Positions 36,949 to 58,636 are shown, counted from the stretch's first letter. The stretch is 64,000 nucleotides of DNA from Escherichia phage vB_EcoM_phAPEC6 (MK817115.1); one strand, 5' to 3'. Notes: generated from the letters alone by a model not told the origin. Numbers and translations are program-made.

Positions 36949-37153
36949 TTTGAATCTCCTAACTTTGTGGGCCGTCGCACCATTGCCGCCCTACGAGATA
37001 CATTATTGCAGTACTGATATACTTTGTCAATACTTTTTTATTAATAGTTTTAGTTCCACCAGCAGATAGTTACTCACCGTTATTAACTATATATTTTGGA
37101 TACACTCCTGCACCCAGTGGGCTAGTTTTTGTCTATGCGTATATAATAGCAAA

Positions 37154-37181
37154 GGGACTGACCGGAGTCAATCCCTTTTTT
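37154..37181. terminator. intrinsic terminator hairpin (conserved repeat-element copy 1)
   Basis: GGGACTGAC-cgga-GTCAATCCC followed by TTTTTT on plus; A-run on other side (bidirectional potential). Confidence 0.45.
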
Positions 37182-39308: not shown

Positions 39309-39422
39309 TACTTTTTATCAAATACTTTAAAATAGTTTTCAGTACTGAATACTTATATAATAGATACACTTATGCACCCTGTGGGTCAGTGAGTTATCTC
39401 TCAATGAATATATATTAGCAAA

Positions 39423-39450
39423 GGGACTGACCGGAGTCAATCCCTTTTTT
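39423..39450. terminator. intrinsic terminator hairpin (conserved repeat-element copy 2)
   Basis: GGGACTGAC-cgga-GTCAATCCC + TTTTTT on plus; lies just downstream of kinase-like gene stop on minus. Confidence 0.45.
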
Positions 39451-42581: not shown

Positions 42582-42726
42582 TAAAACATTATACTTGATT
42601 CTAAGTACAATGCAAGTACTTTTTAAAAATAGTTTTCAGTACTTGATAGTACTAGCCACCAGCATATAATAGATACATTTATGCACCCTGTGGGTTAGAT
42701 TGTTTCTATGCATATATAATAGCAAA

Positions 42727-42754
42727 GGGACTGACCGGAGTCAATCCCTTTTTT
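42727..42754. terminator. intrinsic terminator hairpin (conserved repeat-element copy 3)
   Basis: GGGACTGAC-cgga-GTCAATCCC + TTTTTT. Confidence 0.45.
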
Positions 42755-43476: not shown

Positions 43477-43483
43477 TACTTTT

Positions 43484-45447: not shown

Positions 45448-45467
45448 TTTGATTTCTCTTTGTTAGT

Positions 45468-45527
45468 GGGGAGAACTATTCTCCCCTTGATGTAACTTAT
45501 TATACAGTACTATAATCTATTGTCAAA
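45468..45527 (-). promoter_or_regulatory. early-type promoter + 5' GC hairpin cassette (PeSL-like)
   Basis: TTGACA-N16-TATAAT then hairpin GGGGAGAA-cta-TTCTCCCC. Confidence 0.55.
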
Positions 45528-45540
45528 CTATTTTTTAATA

Positions 45541-45882: not shown

Positions 45883-46065
45883 GATTCGTTTCCTTATTAC
45901 CAGGGGAAACCGTTTCCCCTCTCGATGTAAAACATTATACGCCAATTGAGATAGTTTGCAAGTACTTTTTAAAAATAGTTTTCAGTACTCAATACTTATA
46001 TAATAGATACACTTATGCACCCGGTGGGCTAGTGAGCTATCTCTCAATGAATATATAATAGCAAA

Positions 46066-46094
46066 ATGGCTGACCGAAGTCAACCACTTTTTTC
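46066..46094. terminator. intrinsic terminator hairpin (conserved repeat-element copy 4, diverged)
   Basis: TGGCTGAC-cgaa-GTCAACCA + TTTTTT. Confidence 0.4.
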
Positions 46095-46096
46095 AT

Positions 46097-46231
46097 TTAT
46101 TTTTTAGCTTTCAGTACTGCCGCCTTTCGCGTCATGCCTTGCTTAATGTACTCCTTTACTTTCGCTTTACGTGCTTTCGCTTTATCTGCTTTCGTTTTAG
46201 GAGTACTGTAAATTAAACCGTTAGGATTCAT
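46097..46231 (-). CDS. small basic protein (44 aa), hypothetical
   Basis: own reading: MNPNGLIYSTPKTKADKAKARKAKVKEY... Confidence 0.3.
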   Translation of the reverse strand: MNPNGLIYSTPKTKADKAKARKAKVKEYIKQGMTRKAAVLKAKK

Positions 46232-46321
46232 TTAAATCACCATAAAGAATAGATAGGTTACTAACAATGCCGCGATCAATGCACCGATCACCGCTGAACT
46301 GTAATAAGCTAATGATTTCAT
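46232..46321 (-). CDS. hydrophobic micro-protein (29 aa), putative membrane peptide
   Basis: own reading: MKSLAYYSSAVIGALIAALLVTYLFFMVI; ATGA overlap with upstream gene stop. Confidence 0.3.
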   Translation of the reverse strand: MKSLAYYSSAVIGALIAALLVTYLFFMVI

Positions 46322-46500
46322 TTTTTAGCCTGGAAGTAATGTTTAATTTGTGCGGCGGTCAGTGCACAATTACGCAGGAAGTTTTCTGTATAACTGCGGC
46401 GAGTACTGAAAGAGAATTGACCTTTGCCGTTACCGATAGTAACATCAAACCGAGCGTTGTATTGTTTCATTTTGTTTCTCCTGTTATTGGGGAGAATCAT
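46318..46500 (-). CDS. hypothetical protein (60 aa)
   Basis: ORF track; SD AGGAG. Confidence 0.6.
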   Translation of the reverse strand: MILPNNRRNKMKQYNARFDVTIGNGKGQFSFSTRRSYTENFLRNCALTAAQIKHYFQAKK

Positions 46501-46549
46501 TTCTCCCCTTCATGTAAAACATTATACAGTACTAAAAACTAATTGCAAG
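46489..46549 (-). promoter_or_regulatory. early-type promoter + 5' GC hairpin cassette (PeSL-like)
   Basis: TTGCAA-N16-TATAAT then hairpin GGGGAGAA-tcat-TTCTCCCC. Confidence 0.55.
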
Positions 46550-46551
46550 TA

Positions 46552-46698
46552 CTATTTTTTAGATTTACGCAAACTTTCTACCATCTCAGGAGTAAGGCCA
46601 GGCGGGTAGGAAACCACTTCATCAACGAAACGTAAAGGGAATACCCCAGCGAAAGGTGAACATGCTTTCTTAGTATTACTCTTTTTTGATGCTTTCAT
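46552..46698 (-). CDS. small protein (48 aa), hypothetical
   Basis: own reading: MKASKKSNTKKACSPFAGVFPLRFVDEV...; preceded by promoter + hairpin GGAGAGAAtcatTTCTCCCC. Confidence 0.35.
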   Translation of the reverse strand: MKASKKSNTKKACSPFAGVFPLRFVDEVVSYPPGLTPEMVESLRKSKK

Positions 46699-46767
46699 TT
46701 CATATTCCTTAATTAGTGGAGAGAATCATTTCTCCCCTTCATGTAAAACATTATACGCGTTTAAAAA

Positions 46768-46977
46768 CTAATTGCAAGTATTATTTGAAAGTAAATGCTC
46801 ATACGCTGCATTAACTACGTTTTCAATAACCGACTGTACAGAAAGATCCCCCACGTCCTGGCTATAGTAGAAATCGCTTACAGTACTATCATCGTATGCA
46901 AATACTTTACCAGGATCTGCATCAATCACATACATATTAACCTTTAAGATGTCGATCTTATCCTGTACAGTAAGCAT
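46768..46977 (-). CDS. hypothetical protein (69 aa)
   Basis: ORF track. Confidence 0.55.
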   Translation of the reverse strand: MLTVQDKIDILKVNMYVIDADPGKVFAYDDSTVSDFYYSQDVGDLSVQSVIENVVNAAYEHLLSNNTCN

Positions 46978-46982
46978 ATTAA

Positions 46983-47255
46983 TTAACCTTTTAAGTACTG
47001 GCTTAAGTAGTCTTGTTGATCTTCGGTGATTGCAGCCATCTTCCCTAGTACTGGATTGATGATATAATCCCCTGTAACGTCCTGTAACGCATTCTCAGGC
47101 GGTTTAACGGCTGGGGTAGCCATAGCCATTGCCTGGACTTGTTCGACGCTGTAACGCTCATAAAGGCGGCATTCTTCCGGTGTTAACATAGCATCAGTAC
47201 GCTTCATCGGTTTAATGATGCTTTCGATCTCATTCAGTACTTGATTAACGTTCAT
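46983..47255 (-). CDS. hypothetical protein (90 aa)
   Basis: ORF track. Confidence 0.6.
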   Translation of the reverse strand: MNVNQVLNEIESIIKPMKRTDAMLTPEECRLYERYSVEQVQAMAMATPAVKPPENALQDVTGDYIINPVLGKMAAITEDQQDYLSQYLKG

Positions 47256-47306
47256 GGTATAATCCCCAATATAAGCGGCCTAAATCGACCGCTAACGATG
47301 TTTTGA

Positions 47307-47576
47307 TTAATAGGTGTATGGTTGACGCTCAAACAATGAATAGACGTTATACGCCCCGCTTATGGGCTTCGCTGGTAAATCAATTTTATATTGTTCACGC
47401 TTAAAGATAATAAAACGGCAATTGTTTTTAACATCAAAATTGATTGAACGTTCCAGGAGTTTACCATCGTGCACAAATACAAGATAACCGCTCGCTACTT
47501 GTTTTGTAGTACTGGTTGCAACCATAGACCGCCGAACATGTGTACCTGCATCAATTAAAGTACTGATATTTTTCAT
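47307..47576 (-). CDS. hypothetical protein (89 aa)
   Basis: ORF track. Confidence 0.6.
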   Translation of the reverse strand: MKNISTLIDAGTHVRRSMVATSTTKQVASGYLVFVHDGKLLERSINFDVKNNCRFIIFKREQYKIDLPAKPISGAYNVYSLFERQPYTY

Positions 47577-47656
47577 TATACTATCTTCTTAAGTTAATTT
47601 AATTTCTTTCCCCTATGCAGACACTATATCAAAGTATCTGCATAAAGTAAAGCTAA

Positions 47657-48001
47657 TTAAAGATCTTTTTTGCGTTTAACATCAGTTACCGAACTGTAAA
47701 CAGTGATATTATTGTCACGGCAAAAACGGGAAAGATAAGAACCGCGTAAAAACTCTTTATCTTCCATATTAATAACCTTGCTAAATTCTTCCATTGCTAC
47801 AGTGTCAAAGTGATCCCCGTATCCATATTGGAACGGCACGTTTACTACTTCAATAAAATTACCATCAATTTCTACGTCTACACTTAAAGAGAAATAAGTG
47901 TTACCATATGAAGCCTGGAACCAACGCCGAGCGGCAATATGTACAACTTCAACAGAAGACAGGTTGATATTTTGTTTTGCGATAGTGTTGATATTAGCCA
48001 T
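47657..48001 (-). CDS. hypothetical protein; paralog of 41465..41788
   Basis: ORF track 114 aa; shared GNTY, YGYG, DVKRKKD motifs. Confidence 0.6.
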   Translation of the reverse strand: MANINTIAKQNINLSSVEVVHIAARRWFQASYGNTYFSLSVDVEIDGNFIEVVNVPFQYGYGDHFDTVAMEEFSKVINMEDKEFLRGSYLSRFCRDNNITVYSSVTDVKRKKDL

Positions 48002-48082
48002 TTTAATTTCCTCTTAGTTGTCTTGATAAAATCTATTATGCCAGTACTATCAAACTATGTCAATAGTACTGTGATAATATTT

Positions 48083-48226
48083 TTACTTACTTTTTGCTTT
48101 CTTTGCTGCTTCCACCTGGTCGGCCCATTCTTTACCCCATACTTGTAAATTATAATGGTACTGGCAAAGTGCAACGCCCCGCTTTAAACCAGTAATAGAT
48201 TTTTTACCACATTGACAAGTTTTCAT
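48083..48226 (-). CDS. small Cys-containing protein (47 aa), hypothetical
   Basis: own reading: MKTCQCGKKSITGLKRGVALCQYHYNLQ...; preceded by promoter + hairpin. Confidence 0.35.
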   Translation of the reverse strand: MKTCQCGKKSITGLKRGVALCQYHYNLQVWGKEWADQVEAAKKAKSK

Positions 48227-48312
48227 ATTAGTTTCCTCATTATCAGGGAGAACCATTTCTCCCCTTGATGTAATGTATTATACTTTATCTGATTTACTTT
48301 GCAAGTACTTTT

Positions 48313-48540
48313 TTAATTTAATTCATCCAGGCAAAGGATACGCTCAACGCCCAAATCAGTTAAACTAATCGACGGCACTTGATAGGTTTCAATGTATGCT
48401 ACACTTGCCCACTGACCGAACTCATTAACGGCCCATTTATCCATTGCAAAATGCAATTCCGCACCTTTCTTATTAGTAATTACAGCAACAGTAGAAGAAT
48501 TGCCAGTAGTACCAGTTACGCGAGTGATTACGATAGCCAT
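48313..48540 (-). CDS. hypothetical protein (~75 aa)
   Basis: ORF track 48313..48597; start moved to MAIVITRV Met downstream of hairpin. Confidence 0.55.
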   Translation of the reverse strand: MAIVITRVTGTTGNSSTVAVITNKKGAELHFAMDKWAVNEFGQWASVAYIETYQVPSISLTDLGVERILCLDELN

Positions 48541-48775
48541 TGTTTTAATTCCTTTGATTTGGAAGGAGAACCGTTTCCCCCTCTCGATGTAAAACATTAT
48601 ACGCTAATCTCTTAATCGTGCAAGTACTTTTTATTACTTTTTGCAAAATACTTTAAACGCACTCAATCGCGTTCTTACAGCCTTAACGCCACCAGCTAGG
48701 GCAATGCATCAGATAATCAGTTTAATGCGTTAGAATCGATTCTAGGCGGTGCTGGTGGCCTGGTAAACGTTAAAC

Positions 48776-48803
48776 ACAAAAAAGCCCACTTATGCAGTGG
48801 GCT
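48776..48803 (-). terminator. intrinsic terminator
   Basis: hairpin AGCCCACT-tatgc-AGTGGGCT followed by T-run on minus (A-run on plus) after stop of 48825..49307. Confidence 0.5.
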
Positions 48804-48824
48804 AGTGATTCAGTACTTTAATTG

Positions 48825-49307
48825 TTATGCTTCCACTTTGCGATGAGCTTCGATCCATTCCTCGCGAGTCATACCGCTGGAGTTAATCGCATCCAGTACT
48901 ACCGCAATGCAGTTACCACGCACCGGAATCAGATATTCTTCCCCGTTGTCCAGTACTACCGCTACACGTTTTTGAATCCATTTTTTAGGCTTAGATTCCG
49001 GCTTATCTTCCCCATACTTAACCGCCAGGGCTTTTTGTGCCATCTCTGTAACTACTTCCAGATCCAATCCAACTACTGCCGCCTGAATACTTTCAATTGT
49101 TGCTTGTAGTTCTGCTTCACGGGCCGCCTTTGCCGCTTCAATTTCTGCCGCTTTATTTGCTTGTAGTTCTTTCGCAGTACTATAAGCGATGTTAAAATTA
49201 TTGCGTACCGCTTTCATGGTATCGTTATCCAGATCAGCCAGGATCTCTGCCGCGACGTTAGTTTCATTTGCTACCAGTGCTTTGATGAATGATTTTACAT
49301 TAGCCAT
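48825..49307 (-). CDS. hypothetical protein (~160 aa), Ala/Glu-rich central helix
   Basis: ORF track 48825..49322; start moved to MANVKSF Met behind SD GAGGAT. Confidence 0.6.
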   Translation of the reverse strand: MANVKSFIKALVANETNVAAEILADLDNDTMKAVRNNFNIAYSTAKELQANKAAEIEAAKAAREAELQATIESIQAAVVGLDLEVVTEMAQKALAVKYGEDKPESKPKKWIQKRVAVVLDNGEEYLIPVRGNCIAVVLDAINSSGMTREEWIEAHRKVEA

Positions 49308-49350
49308 TTTATAAATCCTCAATTAAAGTTTAGTTTACGTTGGTTAGTGT

Positions 49351-49421
49351 ATCAAAGTTTTCTCGACGTGTCCAGTTTTTCGTTCGACTTACTGGCGGTC
49401 TACTTAGTGCTCCCCGTCTTG
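49351..49421 (-). ncRNA. structured 5' leader element, diverged copy 3
   Basis: partial sequence similarity to leaders at 42508-42581 and 52314-52389; sits between promoter TTGACA-N16-TAGAAT and gene start. Confidence 0.25.
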
Positions 49422-49510
49422 ATGTAATATATTCTACGCCTTTTTGCGGTAATGTCAACTATTTTTTAAAACTATTTTCAAAGTATCTCAGTACTACGAT
49501 ACTACAAAAA

Positions 49511-49534
49511 CAAAAAAAGCCCACCAGGTGGGCT
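49511..49534 (-). terminator. intrinsic terminator
   Basis: perfect hairpin GCCCACC-a-GGTGGGC with T-run on minus side (A7 on plus) after stop of 49541..49771. Confidence 0.5.
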
Positions 49535-49540
49535 ATGTAC

Positions 49541-49771
49541 TTAATCAGTAATTAAAACATTAAACACTTTATCATTTAACGTTATGGGTGTACTGCTACC
49601 AGGCTTGAGATCAGTTAGTACACCTGCAATAGCTTTTTCATTGGCGACCTTTCCAGTGTCCAACAGTACTACAGTACTGATAAGATTAACGCTCGTTTCA
49701 ATATCATAATGCACGGCGTTAAGTAGTTGTGTAGTACTGCTTTCGTTAAGTAAAACAATTCGCTTAGTCAT
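49541..49771 (-). CDS. hypothetical protein (76 aa)
   Basis: ORF track. Confidence 0.6.
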   Translation of the reverse strand: MTKRIVLLNESSTTQLLNAVHYDIETSVNLISTVVLLDTGKVANEKAIAGVLTDLKPGSSTPITLNDKVFNVLITD

Positions 49772-49792
49772 GATGTTACCCCGTAGTATCTA

Positions 49793-50092
49793 TCAACGGC
49801 AATTAATAACGCCAGTATGAGTTACTTTCTCAGTATCCATAACAGTGACCGAACCGCGTTTAGTACTTGCATCGTAATAAATTGTCGTGCTACCGTTTTC
49901 GTCTTCTTCATGGAACGGGCCGTTTTTAAATGCTTCCGGCTGGATCTCTAAATCCTTTAAAACAATCTCGCCAGTACTTTCATCGGTCATTGCAACAGTG
50001 CACTGAATGAATTTTTCACTACTTACATCTAATGACGCATTAACAGCGAAAGAGGAAACAGATAAAGCCAGGGCGATGATTGCAATTTTCAT
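49793..50092 (-). CDS. small secreted/exported protein (N-terminal signal peptide)
   Basis: ORF track 99 aa; N-term MKIAIIALALSVSSFAVNA has signal-peptide features; SD AGGAT. Confidence 0.5.
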   Translation of the reverse strand: MKIAIIALALSVSSFAVNASLDVSSEKFIQCTVAMTDESTGEIVLKDLEIQPEAFKNGPFHEEDENGSTTIYYDASTKRGSVTVMDTEKVTHTGVINCR

Positions 50093-50112
50093 TTGATTAT
50101 CCTTAGTTACCA

Positions 50113-50173
50113 GGGGGAACCGCTCCCCCCTTGCGATGTAAAATATTATACAGTACTAAAAACTAATTGCAAG
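50113..50173 (-). promoter_or_regulatory. early-type promoter + 5' GC hairpin cassette (PeSL-like)
   Basis: TTGCAA-N16-TATAAT then hairpin GGGGGAA-ccg-CTCCCCC. Confidence 0.55.
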
Positions 50174-50177
50174 TACT

Positions 50178-50414
50178 TTATGATTTTTTATAAAACATTT
50201 CGGCAGTGATATTTTTACCCGTTGGTTGTACTTTATCCAGAATTTTTTGATGTCCAGGGCGACCAAATGAATAAGATCCGTAAACCGTAAACCAGTAGTT
50301 ACCCTCAGTGTTTACATGTACAGCACAATAGGGAACGCCCCGCGATTCATCACTAGTAAAGTGTGATACCGTACCCGTTACATTCGCAGACGTTGATTTG
50401 ATTTGTTCGACCAT
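50178..50414 (-). CDS. hypothetical protein (78 aa)
   Basis: ORF track; SD AGGAA. Confidence 0.6.
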   Translation of the reverse strand: MVEQIKSTSANVTGTVSHFTSDESRGVPYCAVHVNTEGNYWFTVYGSYSFGRPGHQKILDKVQPTGKNITAEMFYKKS

Positions 50415-50522
50415 TTTCTTATTCCTTAGTTACCAGGGGAACCGCTCCCCCTATGCAAAACATTATACGCGTTTAAAAACTAATAGCAAGTATTTTAATA
50501 AAAAGTATTTGGAAAATAATTG

Positions 50523-50551
50523 TTGACAAGTGCATCCAGTACTGGCATAAT
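50523..50551 (+). promoter_or_regulatory. plus-strand sigma70-like promoter (antisense orientation)
   Basis: TTGACA-N17-CATAAT on plus strand; no plus ORF downstream. Confidence 0.4.
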
Positions 50552-50621
50552 TACTACATCAAGACGAAACAGTCACTAACCCACCGGGTGCCGAGATCCG
50601 TCTATTAAATGATTCAGTACT

Positions 50622-50650
50622 AAAAAAAGAAAGGGGATCAATTGATCCCC
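50622..50650 (-). terminator. intrinsic terminator
   Basis: perfect palindrome GGGGATCAATTGATCCCC with T-run on minus side, directly after stop of 50657..50878. Confidence 0.55.
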
Positions 50651-50656
50651 TCGTTG

Positions 50657-50878
50657 TTATTTTGTAAGGTATAAACAGAAGTCACCTTTATTTGCTACGC
50701 CGCCAGTGTAACGCGAGGAATAGTTAGAAACGTCCTGGACTTCTGCTATTACCAGGGTATCATCATTCAATTCGTCGCAGAAGCAAACGGCTGGATCTTG
50801 TACGCCGATATTGTCGGCATGTTCCCGCATAGATTTAACCAGTGCTTCAAGTTGGGAAAGAGTAGTGATATTAGCCAT
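50657..50878 (-). CDS. hypothetical protein (~73 aa)
   Basis: ORF track 50657..50908; start moved to MANITTLS Met downstream of hairpin. Confidence 0.55.
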   Translation of the reverse strand: MANITTLSQLEALVKSMREHADNIGVQDPAVCFCDELNDDTLVIAEVQDVSNYSSRYTGGVANKGDFCLYLTK

Positions 50879-50961
50879 TTTATTTTCCTCATTACCAGGG
50901 AGAACCATTTCTCCCCTTGATGTAAACTATTATACAGTACTAAAAACTAATTGCAAGTACT

Positions 50962-51243
50962 TTAACTGTAAGATCCGCAACGGTCGCAGTAGTGCCCCTC
51001 GTCATCGTCAACGAATTGACCAACGAAATTATCTACTTTCGCTTTCAGGTTATTATAATCGTTTTCTACTTCATTTAAACGCTTCTGGTAGTATTCCAGT
51101 GCTTTAAGATATGCCGCATCAGCAGTTTTCTCCTGCATAGCTAAATTCATGCCACGCGTTTCATCGTACAGCCAAAAACCATCGGTGCACTGGCTAATAG
51201 ATAATGACTTGCTTAGTACTGTATAGTTAATTACTTTACTCAT
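50962..51243 (-). CDS. hypothetical protein (~93 aa), Cys-rich C-terminus
   Basis: ORF track 50962..51324; start moved to MSKVINYT Met downstream of hairpin GGCGGGAAccatTCCCCGCC. Confidence 0.55.
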   Translation of the reverse strand: MSKVINYTVLSKSLSISQCTDGFWLYDETRGMNLAMQEKTADAAYLKALEYYQKRLNEVENDYNNLKAKVDNFVGQFVDDDEGHYCDRCGSYS

Positions 51244-51301
51244 TAGATAAACCCTCAATAAAGGCGGGAACCATTCCCCGCCATTGTTACAGTACTGAAT
51301 A

Positions 51302-51541
51302 TTACATTCCAACCATTGCAGCACGGATCGCAGTAGTGCTATACTTAAAGCCGTCCGGCGTTGTAGTAGTACCGTTGGCTTTTAATCTGCGGTACATGCA
51401 TTCCGCTGCAATATCTTTAGTTCTACTTTGTGCGATACAACTTTGTGCAAGCCGATACAATGACTCACCGTTATTAATCCATAAGGAAACATTCCAATGA
51501 GTTTTGTTTTTGTGCCCGTTGTAAGTTTTAGTACTAGCCAT
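51302..51541 (-). CDS. hypothetical protein; paralog of 53339..53578
   Basis: ORF track 79 aa; shared HKNKTHWNVSLWINN..LYRLAQ..PDGFKYSTTAIRAAMVGM. Confidence 0.65.
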   Translation of the reverse strand: MASTKTYNGHKNKTHWNVSLWINNGESLYRLAQSCIAQSRTKDIAAECMYRRLKANGTTTTPDGFKYSTTAIRAAMVGM

Positions 51542-51633
51542 TTTTTTTAATCCTCGTTTGAGCGGGGAACCACTCCCCGCCTCGATATAAAGTATTATAC
51601 GCTTTTAAACTTAGTTTGCAAGTACTTTTTAAA

Positions 51634-52245
51634 TTAATATTCGATTGATTCTACTACGCCATCAATAACATTGAATTGATATTCGTTACCCTCAATCAGT
51701 GCTGTAATGTTTTCAGTAGTGAATTGATCCTCATATGCATTCTCTAAATCACGGTACAACTTGCGGGATAATTCACGAATAGTTTCAGTGAGTAGTTCCT
51801 CAAGCTCATTAACTAACGTTTCTTGTTTTGCGGTTAAATCAGTGTAAGCCGATTCAATGTACCCGCTTACAGTGTTTTCATGCGAGTAGTGGGAGTGAGA
51901 ACGCTTTACACTCATCGCCAAATCATCTTCATTCAGCAGGTGACGGATTGAGCGATACTTAGTTAATGCTCTTACCTTGCGTAAAAACTTCACTGCGTCA
52001 ACGTGGTCAGTACTGATTGATGCACCGTCACCCTGGGACCAAAAACCACTGAATTGTATTTCAGCGTCATTAATGCCATATTCCGGCAATACTGTTTCTT
52101 TATAGTGTTCAATTTCACTTTCAGAAAAATAATCGTCGTTTGAGTTTTTTTCACGTTCCCGAACCAGTTCGATAGCTGACGTTTTTTGTTCTGCGTTCAA
52201 TTCAGAAAAATCCATAACATAAGTAGTAGTAGTGATAGTTTTCAT
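51634..52245 (-). CDS. acidic hypothetical protein (203 aa)
   Basis: ORF track; SD AGGGT; preceded by tandem promoters and structured leader copy 2. Confidence 0.6.
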   Translation of the reverse strand: MKTITTTTYVMDFSELNAEQKTSAIELVREREKNSNDDYFSESEIEHYKETVLPEYGINDAEIQFSGFWSQGDGASISTDHVDAVKFLRKVRALTKYRSIRHLLNEDDLAMSVKRSHSHYSHENTVSGYIESAYTDLTAKQETLVNELEELLTETIRELSRKLYRDLENAYEDQFTTENITALIEGNEYQFNVIDGVVESIEY

Positions 52246-52313
52246 TTTGTAACCCTCATTCAGTAGTTTATGTAAGTATTATACGCTTTTAAAAACAATT
52301 GTCAAACTATTTT

Positions 52314-52389
52314 ATCAGGGGAGTTTTTCGTGTGCCTTACTCCTGGGCTACTTAACGGGAAGTTACTTATTTCGTTCCCCGTCCTGATG
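52314..52389 (-). ncRNA. conserved structured 5' leader element, copy 2
   Basis: near-identical to 42508-42581 with some differences falling in predicted stems; flanked by promoters TTGCAA..TATAAT and TTGACA-N16-TATAAT. Confidence 0.35.
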
Positions 52390-52467
52390 TAAAACATTAT
52401 ACGCCTTTAAACATAGTTTGCAAGTACTTTTTAAAAATAGTTTTCAGTACTGAATAGTAAAAAGGTA

Positions 52468-52496
52468 TTGACAGCACTATCCAGTACTGGTATAAT
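52468..52496 (+). promoter_or_regulatory. plus-strand consensus sigma70 promoter (antisense orientation)
   Basis: perfect TTGACA-N17-TATAAT on plus strand; no plus ORF follows. Confidence 0.45.
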
Positions 52497-52670
52497 ATAC
52501 CCCATGACAACAGCTAACCCACCGGGTGCACAATTGTAACTGTACTAAACTACTTTTTCTATAGATACACTCCCGCACCCTATGGGCTACGGCTTATCTG
52601 CCAATGAATACATTATGCCAGTACTGACAAAATAAGTCAATACCGGCAATTGTAAAGATTTGTAAACTAC

Positions 52671-52901
52671 TTATACTGCAATCGCGTCCAGGCTATAATA
52701 ATAATAAGTGCCGTATTGGTGTACTTTATTACCTTTTATTTCAGTACTGAATGAATCCGAACGATTGGCATATGATGTTAATTTATAGTACTTTACTTTA
52801 CTAATACGTTGCCATACACCGCAGATCCGCTGTAAGTAAGTAGTTTTATTTGTGGTAGTATCTTTTACGGCTTTCAATTCGATCATATACATAGTGGTCA
52901 T
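52671..52901 (-). CDS. hypothetical protein (76 aa)
   Basis: ORF track; SD AGGAG. Confidence 0.6.
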   Translation of the reverse strand: MTTMYMIELKAVKDTTTNKTTYLQRICGVWQRISKVKYYKLTSYANRSDSFSTEIKGNKVHQYGTYYYYSLDAIAV

Positions 52902-52986
52902 TTTATTACTCCTTGCTTTAGTGGGGAACTATTCCCCACCTGATATAAAGTATTATACGCGTTTAAACTTAGTTTGCAAGTACTTT

Positions 52987-53253
52987 TTATTCAAGTACTG
53001 CGATCTTTTTAATACGGTACACGGTCACGCGGTTGCCCTTTCGGTCGAGCTTTATTTCTACCACTCGACGCGATACACTATCAGGACTTTTCAACGCCGC
53101 TAACCAGTACTGTAATGATCTGGCGGTACTACGCTTTACAATGGCCCAACGTTTACCACGTTCCGATTGTACGCCCATATCTTTAAACGTTGCCCCGTCC
53201 TGGCGTGCGGCGATCCGAGCTTGTTCACGCGTCGCAAAATACTTAATATTCAT
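52987..53253 (-). CDS. hypothetical protein; paralog of 40970..41365
   Basis: ORF track 52987..53289; start moved to MNIKYFATREQAR Met behind SD AAGGG. Confidence 0.6.
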   Translation of the reverse strand: MNIKYFATREQARIAARQDGATFKDMGVQSERGKRWAIVKRSTARSLQYWLAALKSPDSVSRRVVEIKLDRKGNRVTVYRIKKIAVLE

Positions 53254-53338
53254 GCTGTTGCCCTTATCGTTGGTGTATGAATAAAACACTATTATAAAGT
53301 ACTATCGCAAAAAATGATAGTACTTTAAATAAATTCTA

Positions 53339-53578
53339 TTACATTCCAACCATTGCAGCACGGATCGCAGTAGTGCTATATTTGAATCCGTCCGGTGTTT
53401 TATCTTGTCCAGTCTGTTCTAAAAATAACATCATATGACGGGCCGCATCATTACGATTAGTATTGGCGGCAATAAAGTCCTGGGCCAACCGGTATAATGA
53501 TTCATCGTTATTAATCCAAAGGCTTACATTCCAATGAGTTTTGTTTTTGTGACCTAAGAACATTTTTGATTTAGCCAT
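53339..53578 (-). CDS. hypothetical protein; paralog of 51302..51541
   Basis: ORF track 53339..53617; start moved to MAKSKMFLGHKNKTHW Met by paralog alignment and SD GAGGAT. Confidence 0.6.
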   Translation of the reverse strand: MAKSKMFLGHKNKTHWNVSLWINNDESLYRLAQDFIAANTNRNDAARHMMLFLEQTGQDKTPDGFKYSTTAIRAAMVGM

Positions 53579-53671
53579 TTTTTTAATCCTCTTATATAGT
53601 GGGGAACTATTCCCCACCTGATGTAAAACATTATACGCTTTTAAACATAGTTTGCAAGTACTTTATTAAAC

Positions 53672-54034
53672 TTATTCGTAAATTTTGCCACTGTCAGCCC
53701 ATACCAGGAAACGAGGCATATTATCCCATGCATCTTGTTTTAAATTTAAACCGTGTAATACTTCTGTACTTTCCATTCCTGGTACTGGTTTACTATACAC
53801 CGCAAATAGTTCACCCATATACTGATAAGCCATCGTTAAATCACTGGCGATCATCTTATGGATCATCGCATCAAGCATCACGGTAGCGGCGTATTGTTCA
53901 CGCTTAAGCGGTAACATTGCAATAAGTTCCCGATAAGCTGAAATGTGAATTTTTACCGTTTCAGCCGGAAGACCTTTCATCTCTTCACGGAAGTTAACCA
54001 GGTTAGCAATAATTTTATTGATTTGAGTCGCCAT
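53672..54034 (-). CDS. hypothetical protein (~120 aa)
   Basis: ORF track 53672..54091; start moved to MATQINKI Met downstream of hairpin AGCGGGAAgtgtTCCCGCT. Confidence 0.55.
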   Translation of the reverse strand: MATQINKIIANLVNFREEMKGLPAETVKIHISAYRELIAMLPLKREQYAATVMLDAMIHKMIASDLTMAYQYMGELFAVYSKPVPGMESTEVLHGLNLKQDAWDNMPRFLVWADSGKIYE

Positions 54035-54148
54035 CGTTTTCATCTCTCTTACAGTGTAGCGGGAAGTGTTCCCGCTCTCGATGTAAAACATTATACGCTT
54101 TTAAACATAGTTTGCAAGTACTTTCTACATGTACTTTTAAAATAGTTT

Positions 54149-54235
54149 TCTTTCTATATAGGAGTACTATTATTCAGTACTGCAACCATCCAGGGGAACT
54201 ATCTTTCTATATAGTAGTACTATTATTCAGTACTG
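54149..54235. repeat. direct repeat, two ~34-bp copies
   Basis: tctttctatataggagtactattattcagtactg at 54149-54182 and near-identical copy at 54202-54235. Confidence 0.7.
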
Positions 54236-54397
54236 AATCAATCAACCAAATCACTACTACACCCCGTAAAACGGCCTCAGACGCATTCTAACGCATTAAT
54301 ACACCCAAGCTATACATTTGCACCATTCCAATCATTCCAGGGCTTTACGGGCCGTTTAAACGCGTTAAATTATTTTCAATTATTTTGTTTTTAGGTA

Positions 54398-54425
54398 TTG
54401 ACTCAGTACAGAAAAAGCGTATAAT
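54398..54425 (+). promoter_or_regulatory. plus-strand sigma70-like promoter
   Basis: TTGACT-N16-TATAAT on plus. Confidence 0.4.
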
Positions 54426-54612
54426 TACTATATAGACGCGAGAAAGCGGAAACCCCAGAGGGTGCGGAATTACGCCCAAAATTCAAGATATAAAAAAAGG
54501 ATACACTCCCGCACCCTAGCAGGTAAACGCACTTTCTCAGTACTGAAATATAGTACCATAGTCCGGCCCAGGATAGCAAGCAAATTAATTAAAACTTTTT
54601 TCATCCAGGGTA

Positions 54613-54640
54613 TTGCTTTATTTTTCCAGTACTGTATAAT
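54613..54640 (+). promoter_or_regulatory. plus-strand sigma70-like promoter
   Basis: TTGCTT-N16-TATAAT on plus, followed by CCCACCGGGTG motif. Confidence 0.4.
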
Positions 54641-54860
54641 AGTTCCATCAAGTCGAGAAAGACTCAAGCCCACCGGGTGCATAGTTACGCCCAAAATTCA
54701 GTACTAGATTATTTTTTAAAAATATTCATCCAGGCGGTTGACATTGCCCCCAGTTTATAAGATAATGATTCCAGATTCAGAAAAATCTAACTCCAGATAC
54801 TGCGGGGAAACTATCCCCACGCGGTAGGGGAACTATTGGAAAAAACAAAATAAAATTTTG

Positions 54861-55000
54861 ATTTAGCCGTCTATACTTCCAGACGTGTAACCATCTAGCC
54901 GTTTAGCCGTCCAAACGTCTAGCCATCCAGCCCTCCAGAAATCTAGCCGTTTAGCCGTCTAGATGGATAGCCATCTTTACTTCCAGACTTCTGGAGGGCT
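54861..55000. repeat. iteron-like cluster of short direct repeats with flanking inverted repeat
   Basis: TAGCCGT occurs at least five times and TAGCCAT twice within ~110 bp; inverted repeat GCCCTCCAGAA ... TTCTGGAGGGC; direct repeat ACTTCCAGAC x2. Confidence 0.6.
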
Positions 55001-55860
55001 AGACATATCTACGTCCAAAATCCACCCAGGGTAACTACGCCCAAAATCCGTCAGTACTATACCATAGATCTATCTTTTGAAAGGGAGTATTCAGTACTGC
55101 CATCATAGCCCTCACTATGTTACCCTAGGAGGATGAAGACTATCATGTAGTACTGAATACTGTTAGAGGGAATCCACCAGCACAAGCTGGTGGCATAATG
55201 CTTTAGATTAAAATCAGTACTGACACCATTCTGTTAATATCAGTACTGTTATTACGATTTTCATATGAGGTTCAAAAAGATGTACCACCACAGGAGGAAC
55301 TATCTTTTCTGTACTGTCTCACGACAGGAGGTAGAGTAAATGAATTGTTCGCAGCAACTCATCACCCTATGTAGAACATTATACAGTACTGAATCATAAT
55401 GTCAATAGCTTTCTTTCATTATTCAGTACTGATATTCTTGAGAACTACCCGACTACAAACATCATTATATCCCACAAATCATAAACGTCCCAACGTAAAT
55501 TTCAACTTTCGAAGATCCAACTTTTATTTCATAGGTACTCCAAAATTTTTAGGATCGAGATTTAGGATGGAGTACTAACCAACTTTTTGCTGGAGCCTCA
55601 AGGGGTAATGGAATTTTACCCCGAAGGGTAAAGGGGTAATTGAAATTAAGGTGAAAGTAATAATTCAGTACTAATCATTGCGTGATTACTTTTGATTACA
55701 TTTGATGTAATTTGAAAAATGGAAAAGGAGCTTGGAAACTACAAAGTACGGCAGACTTCCTCTGCCTACTTAGTGGCATATCAGTACTGAATCCTTCCCG
55801 TGCATTCTTGAGCATTCTTGTCTATACTAATCAGTACTGAATCATATATAATCATTCTGT

Positions 55861-55920
55861 GATTCTACGGTGCTCATATAAATGTTTATATATGATTACT
55901 TATGACTACCTATGATTACG
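55861..55920. repeat. tandem TGATTAC-type short repeats
   Basis: tatgattac / tatgactac / tatgattac in tandem; further gattac copies near 55680-55720. Confidence 0.5.
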
Positions 55921-56033: not shown

Positions 56034-56225
56034 TTACTTTCTATATATAAGCATTAAGATATAGTAGTACTGATTATACTGTACATTCTCTTTAATATTA
56101 TAAGGGTCTATAGCAATCTCGGTACATCTGTTAAATGCATATCTATTAAATGCCAGTGGAATTATAGATCTAATCCATACTTGTTCATTTTCTTTTAGTT
56201 TACTTATATAGAAGTTTTTATACAT
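56034..56225 (-). CDS. family C paralog (small protein, N-term M.KEFY, C-term LIxRY)
   Basis: ORF track 63 aa; MYKNFYISKL...ILMLIYRK. Confidence 0.6.
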   Translation of the reverse strand: MYKNFYISKLKENEQVWIRSIIPLAFNRYAFNRCTEIAIDPYNIKENVQYNQYYYILMLIYRK

Positions 56226-56240
56226 AGTATTCTCTATTAA

Positions 56241-56423
56241 TTAATATGATAGTACTAGTGTTAGTACTGAGCACAATTGTTCTTTATAGTTCTTAGGGTA
56301 TATAGAATCTTTTATGCACTCATTGAAGTGCCATAGGTATAATCTTGGGTCGCATTCTTTATATATTCTTACGGGGACGAATGTTAGTTTTCTTATATAG
56401 AATTCTTTATGTTCTTTATTCAT
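56241..56423 (-). CDS. family C paralog
   Basis: ORF track 60 aa; MNKEHKEFYIRKL... Confidence 0.6.
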   Translation of the reverse strand: MNKEHKEFYIRKLTFVPVRIYKECDPRLYLWHFNECIKDSIYPKNYKEQLCSVLTLVLSY

Positions 56424-56424
56424 A

Positions 56425-56613
56425 TTAGTACCTGAATATAAGTAGGATTATGTTATAGTACTGGTTAGTACTGCAATGATTCTCTATACATCGATTAACA
56501 GTTATGGAATAGCTATATCTGGCGTAAGCATTATCCAGCGGGATTTTACATTGAGCACTTAGAGAAAGTACAGTAGGTAGTGTATTCAAATAGAAGTCTT
56601 TGTAATTATTCAT
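56425..56613 (-). CDS. family C paralog
   Basis: ORF track 62 aa; MNNYKDFYLNTL...IILLIFRY. Confidence 0.6.
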   Translation of the reverse strand: MNNYKDFYLNTLPTVLSLSAQCKIPLDNAYARYSYSITVNRCIENHCSTNQYYNIILLIFRY

Positions 56614-56815
56614 ACAGGAATAGTATACCTATGATACCTGAGTACAGGTTAGTACTGTTACCATCTTCGTTTGCGTTTAAAGTCATTTGAATACAATTAT
56701 TGTAGCATACTCTGCCGAAAAATGTATTAGTACTTAAAGGTGGAGTAGTCCTTAGAAACATTTGTTCTGAGGGGCTTATGTATTTGGAGTAGAATTCTTT
56801 ATGTTCTTTATTCAT
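56606..56815 (-). CDS. family C paralog
   Basis: ORF track 69 aa; MNKEHKEFYSKYIS...GILFLYE. Confidence 0.6.
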   Translation of the reverse strand: MNKEHKEFYSKYISPSEQMFLRTTPPLSTNTFFGRVCYNNCIQMTLNANEDGNSTNLYSGIIGILFLYE

Positions 56816-56820
56816 ATTAG

Positions 56821-57006
56821 TTAGTGTCTGTATATAAGTAATAGTAAGAATACGTACTGCACATCTTCATCTTTAGTATTGAGTACTGTACGTATTGCGT
56901 CATTAAACAAGAATATAGTACTTGGGTCATGAGAATTTAAAGGGGTTCTGGGTACGGCATGTTTGTAGTTCCCTTTAACAAATTGTGTGTAGTATTCTCT
57001 ATGCAT
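56821..57006 (-). CDS. family C paralog
   Basis: ORF track 61 aa; MHREYYTQFV...LLLLIYRH. Confidence 0.6.
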   Translation of the reverse strand: MHREYYTQFVKGNYKHAVPRTPLNSHDPSTIFLFNDAIRTVLNTKDEDVQYVFLLLLIYRH

Positions 57007-57007
57007 A

Positions 57008-57193
57008 TTAGTACCTATATATTAGGGCGATAATGTAGTACAATTCATATGGAATGTAATTTGGGGTGATCGCACACTGTGTATGGTAAATGAATTGTTC
57101 GGTATTTTTCTTATCCTTGATATCTATTGGGATTAGTGGTATAAGCATTTGGGAGTTTAGATCGAGATGGCTTAAGTAGAATTCTTTATGCAT
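57008..57193 (-). CDS. family C paralog
   Basis: ORF track 61 aa; MHKEFYLSHL...IIALIYRY. Confidence 0.6.
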   Translation of the reverse strand: MHKEFYLSHLDLNSQMLIPLIPIDIKDKKNTEQFIYHTQCAITPNYIPYELYYIIALIYRY

Positions 57194-57202
57194 ATTGTTC
57201 TT

Positions 57203-57391
57203 TTAGAATACGAAAGCTAGGTACAGGGTATGATACAGTACTCGATGATAGCTGTCAAAATCTAGTATACATGCTTTAGTGCACATAGTAAAGTACACTT
57301 TATCGTTTTGTGCATTGATACCGCGAGGTTTATCTAATAGATTAGTACTGAGGTACATTGGGAAATATTTTGTGTAGTATTCTTTATGCAT
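57203..57391 (-). CDS. family C paralog
   Basis: ORF track 57203..57436; start moved to MHKEYYTKYF Met by paralog alignment. Confidence 0.55.
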   Translation of the reverse strand: MHKEYYTKYFPMYLSTNLLDKPRGINAQNDKVYFTMCTKACILDFDSYHRVLYHTLYLAFVF

Positions 57392-57392
57392 A

Positions 57393-57575
57393 TTAGTACC
57401 TGAATATAAGTAGGATAGTGTTATATAGCTGGTCATAACTACTACTATTTTCTATACTTCGTTCTATGCAGTTATTGAATCCCAGTACTGCCAAATCGTT
57501 ATCCATAGGGACTTTGTATCTGGCGTAGTGTTCAAAAATGCTGGGGAGAAATTGTGTGTAGTATTCTTTGTGCAT
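57393..57575 (-). CDS. family C paralog
   Basis: ORF track 60 aa; MHKEYYTQFL...ILLIFRY. Confidence 0.6.
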   Translation of the reverse strand: MHKEYYTQFLPSIFEHYARYKVPMDNDLAVLGFNNCIERSIENSSSYDQLYNTILLIFRY

Positions 57576-57576
57576 A

Positions 57577-57762
57577 TTAGTACCTATATATTAGTAAAAG
57601 GATGTGATACAGTACTCGATTATAGTCTTCAATATATATCGAGGATTTAGTGCACTGAATGAAGTAGTCTTTTTCGTAGTTTTTTTCTATACCCAATGGT
57701 TCTGTTGGTACAAGGTGTTGGAGATACATTGGGAGTTTCTCTATGTAGTATTCTTTATACAT
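57577..57762 (-). CDS. family C paralog
   Basis: ORF track 61 aa; MYKEYYIEKL...LLLIYRY. Confidence 0.6.
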   Translation of the reverse strand: MYKEYYIEKLPMYLQHLVPTEPLGIEKNYEKDYFIQCTKSSIYIEDYNRVLYHILLLIYRY

Positions 57763-57771
57763 ATATTATCC

Positions 57772-57972
57772 TTAGTACTGGAACGCAAGGTACAGGGTGT
57801 GGTAAAGTTGTACTTGATAATTGTTTTCATTAGCTTCTTCATTAAGTACTTGTTCAGTACATGTACGGAAGTAATCAGCTTCATATATACAGTCAATACC
57901 GCGAGGTTCATCTTCTAATAGATTTCCTTGTAGAAACTTTGGTAGTTCTTTTATGTAGAATTCTTTATACAT
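57772..57972 (-). CDS. family C paralog
   Basis: ORF track 57772..58035; start moved to MYKEFYIKEL Met by paralog alignment. Confidence 0.55.
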   Translation of the reverse strand: MYKEFYIKELPKFLQGNLLEDEPRGIDCIYEADYFRTCTEQVLNEEANENNYQVQLYHTLYLAFQY

Positions 57973-58636
57973 AGTTTGTAATATACGTAATGAGGTGATG
58001 CATTTTCTTATCAGTACTGATAATTTCCTGTACATGTTTTGTCAGATTGTACGCGTTTTTATAGAGTACTGGATTATCGATTACAGTACTGTACATGAAT
58101 AGTTCTTCTTCCTGTAGTTCTTTGTGTTCTAGTTCTTTGAGGAATTCTACAATTGATTTAGTTTCTTCTGTACGTTGTGCTTGCCAGAAGTGCATATTCT
58201 CGTGTACTTTTTTTGCACCTATACTGTATATACCACCCATTTGGAATTGTGCTGTATTGACATCGTGGGAGGTGTTACAATTCCCGAAGAAGTATGTATT
58301 CCCGAAGTATAGCATTAAAGTGCACGGGGTATTATCCAACTGCATATGGATGATGAAGGATGCGTTCTTTAGTACCTTTGTGCTCGTATTAGTACTCAAT
58401 ACTTTTAAATCAGTATTATAGATATTCATATAATGAACAGCTATATTATTTTTCTTCATGTACAATCCCAGGTTCTTTGATACGTTAACTCCATTTGTAC
58501 TGGATTTTTCCTTTTTATTTCGTTTCTTTAGTACATTCGGGTGATACGTATATGCAGATGTAACTGATTCTGCCTGAATACTATTGAGGTACTTAAAGTG
58601 CTTAAGGTATTGTTTGCTGTGTGCATTAAGTTTCAT
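57965..58636 (-). CDS. hypothetical protein (223 aa) with family A-like motif, embedded in family C array
   Basis: ORF track; motif QEEELFMYSTVIDNP; SD AGGAAA. Confidence 0.6.
   Translation of the reverse strand: MKLNAHSKQYLKHFKYLNSIQAESVTSAYTYHPNVLKKRNKKEKSSTNGVNVSKNLGLYMKKNNIAVHYMNIYNTDLKVLSTNTSTKVLKNASFIIHMQLDNTPCTLMLYFGNTYFFGNCNTSHDVNTAQFQMGGIYSIGAKKVHENMHFWQAQRTEETKSIVEFLKELEHKELQEEELFMYSTVIDNPVLYKNAYNLTKHVQEIISTDKKMHHLITYITNYV

Follow-up and report, generated by a model that had tools for sequence, protein, structure and literature searches.

A repeated promoter and RNA-leader unit in the terminal repeats of Escherichia jumbo phages and their relatives: a candidate RNA family

Within a 64,000-nucleotide stretch of DNA from Escherichia phage vB_EcoM_phAPEC6 (MK817115.1), which we refer to as the window, five sigma70-type promoters on the plus strand (P1 to P5, starting at 50523) point against the direction of all of the neighbouring genes, and this raises the question of what they could serve. 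The first-pass annotation had proposed that they produce antisense or non-coding transcripts running into the 3' ends of leftward genes or into a region devoid of open reading frames (ORFs). Scoring of the sites bore out the perfect consensus claimed for P2 (52468..52496, TTGACA-N17-TATAAT, 12/12), the -10 of which reads CATAAT in relatives. Similar promoters had been proposed at four further sites, and here P1 (50523..50551, TTGACA-N17-CATAAT), P3 (54398..54425, TTGACT-N16-TATAAT) and P5 (54738..54766, TTGACA-N17-GATAAT) each scored 11/12, whereas P4 (54613..54640, TTGCTT-N16-TATAAT) has a -35 that matches at just 3/6 positions, for which reason it was not listed by the promoter scan. The spacer of P1 contains CCAGTACTGG, which provides an extended -10 TG. 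In total, four sites scoring at least 11/12 were found on the plus strand of 50400-54900 against 0.07 expected from first-order Markov sequences, none of 300 of which reached four. All five promoters, P1 included, are kept at orthologous positions in seven other genomes of Asteriusvirus, the genus of the source phage; P1 is also conserved in paralogues in phage RaK2, and at P3 the spacer differs among relatives (CAGTACAG, TGATCCTG or CAGTACTA) while both hexamers are unchanged. We conclude that P1-P4, together with P5, are genuine, conserved, near-consensus promoters of the host type. The -35 region of P4, TATTGCTTTA, resembles the core TGCTT of the T4 MotA box, as in PmSL cassettes (PMC4122927), and because of this P4 may be a middle-type rather than an early promoter.

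It had also been noted that a short motif follows every promoter. The motif, CCCACCGGGTG, is present exactly at 50580, 52518 and 54669, which is 28, 21 and 28 nt past the -10 of P1, P2 and P4, respectively, but P3 is followed only by the variant CCCAGAGGGTG at 54454, and P5 lacks it. When up to one mismatch was allowed, nine matches to the motif were found in the window against 0.16 expected. Copies of the promoter with its motif also lie on the minus strand, at 37121, 39385, 42694, 46028, 52586 and 54523, with the motif 21-26 nt after the -10; thus the promoters oppose their neighbours locally, as was claimed, but the same unit sits six times on the strand of the genes. A covariance model run with filters off recovered nine full copies and one degenerate copy, all of them at 37090-54700, and no copies in the remaining ~46 kb of the window. 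Promoter and motif are one repeated unit, not separate elements.

The span that holds these copies is part of a direct terminal repeat (DTR). The source phage belongs with the 121Q/PBECO4/G17-like jumbo phages of E. coli, and ~30 Asteriusvirus genomes match positions 50400-55400 at 87-96% identity; several of the matching records begin a few hundred bases past the matched stretch and one of them is annotated with direct terminal repeats of 21.5 kb. For phage fEgEco12, the termini have been verified by PhageTerm and restriction mapping, giving a DTR of 20,993 bp (PMC13070987). The boundaries were located by aligning the first 24 kb of fEgEco12 to the window: position 1 of that record falls at 55770, exactly where the alignment stops, which places the outer DTR boundary and physical left end there, and the inner boundary lies at ~35690. 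Because the fEgEco12 end maps to 55770, the five promoters occupy the outermost 5 kb of a ~20-kb DTR, with the plus strand running toward the physical end of the genome. P3, P4 and P5 therefore face not just an ORF-free region but the genome end, ~1 kb away.

Comparison of the copies gave the anatomy of the unit. The promoter consensus is TTGAC(A/T)-N17-(T/C)AT(A/T)AT and comes in two flavours, one in which CAGTACTG abuts the -10 (P1, P2, P4 and the minus-strand promoter at 52640) and one in which the -35 lies within a terminator-like hairpin (four units in the sense orientation); the likely first nucleotide of the RNA is the A of a conserved CAT. A 5' domain of ~45 nt follows, made up of a hairpin that we call H1, a linker of 1-7 nt, the 12-mer CCCAYNGGGUGC and then a G-U-rich hairpin. 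The motif is not a free-standing DNA box but the invariant core of a conserved RNA domain. H1 sits 2-5 nt from the predicted 5' end and has a stem of 3-5 bp and a purine- or A-rich loop of 6-8 nt (GAGAAA, GCGAAA, AGAUAA or AGAACAA). Its stems are highly varied (GAC/GUC, AGUC/GACU, CGC/GCG, UGAG/CUCA, GCCA/UGGC, CAGA/UCUG, AGACA/UGUCU, GGAG/CUCC and others).

H1 was analysed with the covariance model as well as in each sequence singly. Of 66 distinct leaders, 91% had a 5' hairpin of 3 bp or more, with ~19 stem sequences, compared with 52% of shuffles. In the model-based alignment, H1 contained 116 double-change cells against 56 in shuffles, a number reached in 0 of 500; this alignment is fitted to the model and so leans toward structure; even so, the register is not fully kept, only 59% of the H1 cells being paired. 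RNAalifold run on a MAFFT alignment returned the CCC/GGG triloop alone, because MAFFT lost the register of the 5' hairpin. The conserved linear element reads CCCAYNGGGTGC in all 83 aligned units, and the invariance of the 12-mer argues for sequence-specific recognition. In the second hairpin, the GGGUG of the 12-mer can pair with a downstream YRYCY (UAUCU, CGUCU, CGCCC or UACCC), and this pairing is possible in 88-96% of cases compared with 23-60% when the partner is slid; many of the pairs are G-U, which exist on the transcribed strand alone, the other strand having C-A mismatches. In an alternative fold, a CCC-AYN-GGG triloop hairpin, 97% are paired and there is one compensatory CCU/AGG.

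The family extends well beyond the window. Screening of IMG/VR by pattern, followed by the covariance model, identified 130 matches (90 distinct) in Asteriusvirus, RaK2, GAP32 and CBB and in metagenomic contigs of 355-366 kb. A loose pattern, ATAAT-N18-32-motif, gave mostly chance matches, of which the model kept contigs from jumbo phages alone: it matched L038 (109 kb) and L118, each with several units, and found no match in ~98 unrelated viral loci that fitted the pattern. For three other phages, sampled ~20 kb to either side, all of the copies lay in the span equivalent to the DTR. Of all the members, the unit at 52586(-) shows the best conservation between genera, and it is the sole part of its intergenic DNA that can be aligned to phages of other genera, namely Klebsiella phages RaK2, K64-1 and Muenster, Cronobacter phage GAP32, Pectobacterium phage CBB, Salmonella phage Munch and an Erwinia phage; two of these matches fall in annotated terminal repeats. 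It can be seen that the promoters of the unit are real and conserved, that the unit is always in the transcribed orientation and constrained at the RNA level, and that it is restricted to the DTR and present in phages of at least five host genera. We consider it very probable that P1-P4 belong to a genuine, transcribed, DTR-specific family of promoters with RNA leaders, and the comparisons lend good support to the element as a previously undescribed candidate RNA family of RaK2-like jumbo phages. It is not described in the papers on CBB, fEgEco12, Sharanji and PA5oct, and in the searchable literature the motif strings retrieved only unrelated primers or sequences. GenBank records call 'hypothetical proteins' of 30-40 amino acids over some units, for example at 7280-7399 and 20847-20957 of fEgEco12 (L003), which are probably annotation artefacts.

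The same 12-mer was also seen in bacterial sequences. Several Ruminococcus metagenome-assembled genomes (MAGs; within loci L143-L183) carry a multi-copy palindromic repeat whose arms, TTTCAGCCCCATAGGGTGCAT, contain it, and in Streptomyces and a gammaproteobacterial MAG there are long palindromes that begin CCCAYAGGGTGC; we judge these occurrences to be coincidental. A genome-wide pattern scan for bacterial counterparts of the convergent arrangement described below likewise returned unrelated long palindromes (the Ruminococcus family, Streptomyces and others), with about the chance number of independent families and none in Enterobacterales.

The copies in the window are found in four contexts. 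P1 represents the first, a unit followed by a terminator, with a predicted RNA of ~100 nt (50558..50665, plus strand) that is conserved also in RaK2. Its H1 is formed by GAC at 50563-65 and GUC at 50572-74, the 12-mer CCCACCGGGUGC lies at 50580-50591 with GGGUG (50586-90) pairing to CGUCU (50599-50603), and a bidirectional terminator hairpin at 50632-50651 begins 52 nt after the start of the 12-mer. As this terminator precedes any coding sequence, P1 transcripts would not run into the leftward genes in the manner that had been suggested. P1, like the unit at 54523(-) described below with its U7 terminator, has the sequence features of a stand-alone small-RNA gene, namely a promoter, a terminator at ~50-300 nt, no ORF and conservation. 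RaK2 has two units of this type in intergenic gaps, antisense to genes, with a bidirectional terminator held in common with the convergent gene, and the stems of such terminators vary between phages by compensatory changes. Backward units have orthologues in phages ranging from those of E. coli to those of Klebsiella, and this holds for P1 together with its terminator.

P2 and P3 belong to the second context, that of convergent pairs, and are matched with 52586(-) and 54523(-), respectively, with predicted transcription start sites (TSSs) ~100-110 bp apart. The P2 leader (52504..52549, plus strand; 41.6 bits with the covariance model) has a weak H1 and its 12-mer at 52518-52529. The partner (52555..52640, minus strand) would be transcribed from a promoter at 52640..52612 (TTGACT-N17-CATAAT, with TG) and has an H1 of UGGC/GCCG and CCCAUAGGGUGC at 52586..52575. 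The P3 leader (54432..54485, plus strand; 40.7 bits) has an H1 of CGC-GAGAAA-GCG and the variant 12-mer CCCAGAGGGUGC at 54454-54465, the GGGUG of which pairs with CGCCC. It faces a degenerate partner (54488..54579, minus strand; partial covariance-model match, E 0.17) with a weak promoter at 54579..54550 (TTGCTA-N18-TACTAT), CCUGCUAGGGUGC at 54523..54511 and the hairpin GGGUGCGGGAGUGUAUCC followed by a U7 tract, a terminator that predicts an RNA of ~50 nt. The facing promoters of a cis-antisense pair are thus present at P2/52640(-) and P3/54579(-). The two motifs of a pair stand 68-69 bp apart, a distance that does not change in 121Q, CBB, GAP32 and metagenomic relatives and is thus kept in other genera, and the full-length convergent transcripts are predicted to fold or pair extensively (z -3.7 to -4.9).

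In the third context, units on the minus strand lie in the sense orientation, 60-80 nt upstream of an ordinary gene promoter and with no terminator in between. There are four of these: 45997..46083, where the -35 is inside a terminator-like hairpin and the gene promoter lies 67 nt past the 12-mer; 42663..42744, which has a Chi site 30 nt past the 12-mer; 39354..39440; and 37090..37171, the innermost copy, ~1.4 kb from the inner DTR boundary. A CAGTACTG-type promoter (37030..37002, minus strand, TTGACA-N17-AATAAT) lies just past the last of these, and the GC-rich stretch that follows it, GUAUCUCGUAGGGCGGCAAUGGUGCGACGGC, is not a family member.

The last context is that of P4 and P5, downstream of which there is nothing recognisable but non-coding DNA, an array with an 8-bp period and the genome end. 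The P4 leader (54647..54700, plus strand; 47.6 bits) has an H1 of AGUC-GAGAAA-GACU and the 12-mer at 54669-54680, its GGGUG pairing with CGCCC. P5 and its leader (54738..54860, plus strand) contain an H1-like hairpin, AGAUU-CAGAAA-AAUCU, at 54773-54788 followed by GCGGGGAAACUAUCCCCACGC, with a folding z of -3.2, but the leader has no 12-mer and no match to the covariance model, and P5 is related to the family only loosely. The set of hairpins in the P5 leader differs from that of the family, and one is of the GC type seen in the 5' untranslated regions (UTRs) of the early genes, on the opposite strand. No recognisable terminator follows P2, P3, P4 or P5. Two promoter-less remnants of the 3' half of the unit, TACGYCCAAAATCC and CCACCCAGGGTAACTACGCCC, lie at 55006-55049 and suggest decay of former units near the terminus.

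As had been noted, no conserved plus-strand ORF was found after P1-P5. The sole ORF of at least 40 amino acids, at 54462-54707 after P3 (GTG start, 81 amino acids), has no usable Shine-Dalgarno (SD) sequence and indels break its frame in relatives. Since the promoters are genuine and conserved and have no coding cargo, non-coding plus-strand transcripts are the natural expectation; this part of the original proposal holds, but the proposal as a whole is too narrow: antisense output does not define the family, as sense units and convergent pairs also occur. The Rfam covariance models gave no matches across the whole window, and in 50400-55900 with E up to 5 only a plant miRNA and RT-6 appeared, at chance level and far below gathering thresholds; ARAGORN found no tRNA or tmRNA in the window. 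Several identities were considered and rejected. Mimicry of, or pairing with, rnpB or rrnH was set aside after a search with the 12-mer and its complement, at up to two substitutions, gave one chance site only; local alignments to rnpB and rrnH were no better than those of shuffles, and a partial resemblance to RNase P RNA and the 530 region of 16S rRNA was unsupported. Homology to the non-coding RNAs (ncRNAs) in the DTR of PA5oct was likewise rejected, the covariance model giving nothing significant.

The DTR that houses the units has several other features. The small early ORFs that make up the leftward genes each have a promoter of their own (TTGCAA/TTGACA-N16-TATAAT) and a 5' UTR with a GC hairpin, and the few Pfam matches among them are all domains of unknown function (DUFs). 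Every small early gene shares the same 5' UTR design, in which the GC hairpin GGGGAAnnnnTTCCCC is followed by UGGUAAYUAAGGA and the start codon (for example at 50415-50460, 50880-50925, 51545-51590 and 52905-52945). Two paralogous early proteins of 79 amino acids, at 51302-51541 and 53339-53578 on the minus strand, belong to DUF7249, and tandem ORFs of ~60 amino acids lie at 56034-58035, just past the DTR boundary. Bidirectional terminators are dense in the DTR, and its annotation includes a DksA-like zinc-finger protein and a Ser/Thr kinase. Gene content between the units varies among phages, the region being hyperplastic and made up of small ORFan genes. The palindrome CAGTACTG occurs 58 times across the window against 0.8 expected (for example at 50537, 52482, 54627 and 55384), with left flanks that are T-rich and right flanks that are A-rich. 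In 10 cases it abuts a -10 and supplies the TG of an extended -10, and in the form AGTAC-TTGCA it merges with the -35 of 17 promoters of leftward genes, often with a second copy ~23 bp upstream. It is probably a binding site for a transcription regulator or part of a phage-specific class of promoter. Relatives encode an RpoD-like sigma factor (PMC11895373).

The terminal ~1.7 kb, 54100-55770, is without ORFs and is crowded with promoter-like sites on both strands, among them a TTGACA-N16-TATAAT (12/12) at 55405..55378 on the minus strand; it also has duplicated 42-nt blocks (54149/54202) and many copies of CAGTACTG. The array with the 8-bp period, at 54868-55019, has ~18 units (CGTCTAGC, CATCCAGC, CCTCCAGA, AATCTAGC and others) and is in part a 36-nt inverted repeat; it lies ~100 nt 3' of the P5 start and ~800 bp from the genome end, and could be a terminase or packaging site or an origin-type array of iterons. 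Chi (GCTGGTGG) occurs 11 times against 0.35 expected, at 37056-55193, with all copies within the DTR. Nine of the 11 are on the minus strand, oriented for entry of RecBCD from the outer end of the right DTR copy (~35690), and the plus-strand Chi at 55186 faces the opposite way, suited to entry at the left physical end, which is 585 bp from it. Positions 55174-55193 read CCACCAGC-acaa-GCTGGTGG, which is Chi in both orientations as a hairpin. This distribution suggests Chi-based protection of the genome ends.

How might such a family work? Host RNA polymerase would be expected to fire the unit promoters once the DTR enters the cell. As each DTR has ~10 units and a genome has two DTRs, short non-coding RNAs would be made in many copies. 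The functional product could then be the 5' domain, present early and in abundance as an RNA handle to which a conserved protein of host or phage is bound or by which it is titrated, and the sequence 3' of the domain would be of secondary importance, whether terminator, convergent partner or following gene. We favour the 5' domain as the product because it is always kept, on either strand, with or without cargo, and the presence of units on either strand wherever there is intergenic room would be explained in this way. A trans role for the domain, by binding a factor or serving as its decoy, is nevertheless a speculative proposal, and we rate the complete statement, of the family and the trans-acting mechanism together, as somewhat short of an even chance. 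A more far-reaching reading, which we think rather doubtful, is that the ~45-nt domain is a phage RNA effector of a new class, made in bulk from the first-entering DNA. As a decoy it might sequester a protein conserved in enterobacteria (for instance a ribonuclease, RNA chaperone or immune sensor), or it might be a put-like RNA that reprogrammes host RNA polymerase, and the convergent pairs would in either case add a dsRNA-forming or mutually limiting layer.

A number of observations weigh against a trans-acting RNA. The binding partner of the 5' domain is hypothetical. The unit has no similarity or complementarity to rnpB or the rrn operon, and blastn with the P1 unit gave no match in 5,426 complete E. 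coli genomes. The helices that contain the 12-mer vary one-sidedly, bar the single compensatory CCU/AGG, so that the data allow both folds without proving either, and recognition at the DNA level, or by the polymerase as it transcribes, would account equally well for the invariant 12-mer. The terminator of P1 also serves the convergent gene, and its plus-strand U-tract is imperfect. Sense units, being without a terminator, continue into the next gene, which a cis-acting leader fits at least equally well. Finally, we found no RNA-seq for Asteriusvirus or RaK2-like coliphages, and the TSSs, 3' ends and abundance given here are predictions.

The main competing explanation is indeed a cis-acting leader of the nut, put or Q type, which would modify RNA polymerase for read-through of the DTR terminators, the 5' hairpin and 12-mer either loading a factor or acting directly. 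P1-type units would then be promoter-signal-terminator switches like lambda PR'-tR', with read-through giving antisense RNA across early genes, and the sense units would drive delayed expression of distal genes. The position of the element is consistent with this, as it is fixed close to the promoter (+15 to +35) and always on the non-template strand, and the order of an A-rich-loop hairpin and then a conserved linear box could be likened to the logic of boxB and boxA. Sense units stand without terminators ahead of genes, a conserved terminator comes after the units of the P1 type, bidirectional terminators abound in the DTR, and the DksA-like protein and Ser/Thr kinase that it encodes could act on RNA polymerase. 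However, hardly any gene lacks a promoter of its own, processive antitermination sits poorly with convergent units that are 110 bp apart, P3-P5 have no cargo before the DNA ends, the 12-mer is unlike boxA or ops, and no antiterminator gene was identified; we regard this explanation as fairly unlikely. An extension of the view taken in the first-pass annotation, that the plus-strand promoters serve antisense RNA or transcriptional interference, for example to shut off the leftward early genes, draws on the convergent geometry of P2/52586(-) and P3/54523(-), with their closely placed TSSs, the conserved motif spacing and the extensive pairing predicted for the transcripts, which would make P2 and P3 cis-antisense regulators of the leaders of their partners in the geometry of ColE1 RNA I/RNA II; the transcripts of P2 and P4 also meet no terminator before the 3' ends of leftward genes. 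Yet six of the 10 units in the window are on the gene strand, P1 ends before any coding sequence, in the left DTR copy P3-P5 face just ~1 kb of non-coding DNA and the genome end, and the invariant 5' domain, which antisense action does not need, is the most conserved part. Antisense action may be one layer for P2 and P3 but it cannot be the rationale of the family, and as a general explanation we consider it unlikely.

The units could also be mobile, recombination-prone promoter/terminator cassettes like the PeSLs (promoter-early stem-loop cassettes) of T4-type phages, spreading within the plastic DTR, with the backward copies as by-products of shuffling and the RNA without function. The -35 of the sense units is embedded in a terminator-like hairpin, as in one subclass of PeSL (PMC2839356), and the hyperplastic region of small ORFans, the variable gene content between units and the promoter-less remnants at 55006-55049 all fit with shuffling. 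On the other hand, a PeSL by definition places promoter and terminator by an SD and ATG, whereas no ORF follows P1-P5; orthologues of the backward units, among them P1 and the terminator after it, are retained between E. coli and Klebsiella phages; and the conserved part is a transcribed leader with covariation, which recombination alone leaves unexplained. PeSL-like shuffling probably explains the spread of copies, but not the conservation of the leader, and as an account of the family we find it very unlikely. Least probable, in our estimation, is a DNA-level element, in which a protein of replication initiation, packaging or recombination near the genome end would bind the 12-mer and, in the pairs, the inverted repeat CCCAYNGGGTGC(G)GAG...CTCC(G)CACCCNRTGGG, and transcription would serve only to activate the site, for example by forming an R-loop or activating an origin in the manner of T4 or T7. 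In its favour, no compensatory variation accompanies the invariance of the 12-mer, the pairs are exact inverted repeats at fixed spacing, and copies cluster near the terminus, by the 8-bp-period array and Chi sites. Against this, the motif is not palindromic, solitary units outnumber pairs, and every copy scored as a member has a promoter-like -35/-10 at 20-30 nt on its upstream side, from which it would be transcribed in the proper orientation, an association that outside the window and the Asteriusvirus loci is partly by construction because the screen required a promoter. Moreover, the adjoining H1 covaries as RNA, and the second hairpin needs G-U pairs, in place of which the opposite strand would have C-A mismatches. 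This strand specificity and the RNA covariation speak against a purely DNA-level role.

RaK2/121Q jumbo phages are in development for therapy, and their early programme is almost unknown, the ~20-kb terminal repeats having so far been annotated merely as strings of hypothetical genes. An element of ~10 copies with an invariant core and host-type promoters, which does not leave the terminal repeat and which phages of Escherichia, Klebsiella, Cronobacter, Pectobacterium, Salmonella and Erwinia have all retained, probably has a part in takeover of the cell. The covariance model now allows it to be annotated in new genomes, and the work corrects likely mis-annotated small 'hypothetical proteins' over units in several GenBank records. 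Were the domain to act as an RNA effector, it would represent a host-takeover mechanism common to all RaK2-like jumbo phages.

Among known systems, the lambda nut, HK022 put and lambda PR'-qut-tR' (6S RNA) sites are promoter-proximal transcribed signals in which a hairpin lies by a linear box. The units resemble them in having an A-rich-loop hairpin by a conserved box and, for the P1 type, a strong promoter with a short terminated transcript. They differ from nut sites in that the linear element CCCAYNGGGTGC is not boxA (consensus CGCTCTTA / TGCTCTTTAACAA) and in being present in ~10 copies on both strands, some of them convergent, and we know of no antiterminator for them. The ops/JUMPStart element of RfaH, GGCGGTAGnnTG, acts on the non-template strand of the leader of long operons; the 12-mer differs from it at most positions, and CGCGGTAG (54820-54827, past P5) is an isolated partial resemblance. 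T7 has a leftward E. coli promoter, A0 (D), which is used by host polymerase near the terminally repeated end and fires toward that end, but this is a single promoter with no conserved leader family. As in ColE1 RNA I/RNA II and coliphage 186 pR/pL, P2 and P3 face the promoters of their partners, and because of this facing arrangement and the distance between TSSs the two transcripts of each pair would be fully complementary; in contrast to those systems, both partners share the 5' domain, there is no replication or lysis-lysogeny function, and most members are unpaired.

Two further comparisons are with other phages. PA5oct, a distantly related jumbo phage, has the highly transcribed, ORF-free ncRNA001 and ncRNA002 in its DTR (PMC7318152). 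Its DTR is likewise long and full of early genes, and we cite it as a precedent for ncRNAs in such repeats, but the two RNAs, of 236 and 451 nt, are both on the gene strand, form no repeated family and have no homology to the units. The PeSLs of T4-type phages (PMC2839356, PMC4122927) share with the units near-consensus sigma70 promoters with AT-rich upstream DNA, a high number of repeats and a plastic early region of small ORFans. The minus-strand units have their -35 in a terminator-like hairpin like one PeSL subclass, with GGGATTGACTCCGGTCAGTCCC spanning the -35 of four of them, and a TGCTT (Mot-box-like) variant exists, as at P4. However, the spacers of P1-P5 hold CAGTACTG or nothing, with no stem-loop at the promoter boxes, and PeSLs end in an SD and start codon and have no conserved transcribed RNA domain, whereas the minus-strand units are followed by a second promoter before the gene, and half of the copies described here have no gene at all and point backwards.

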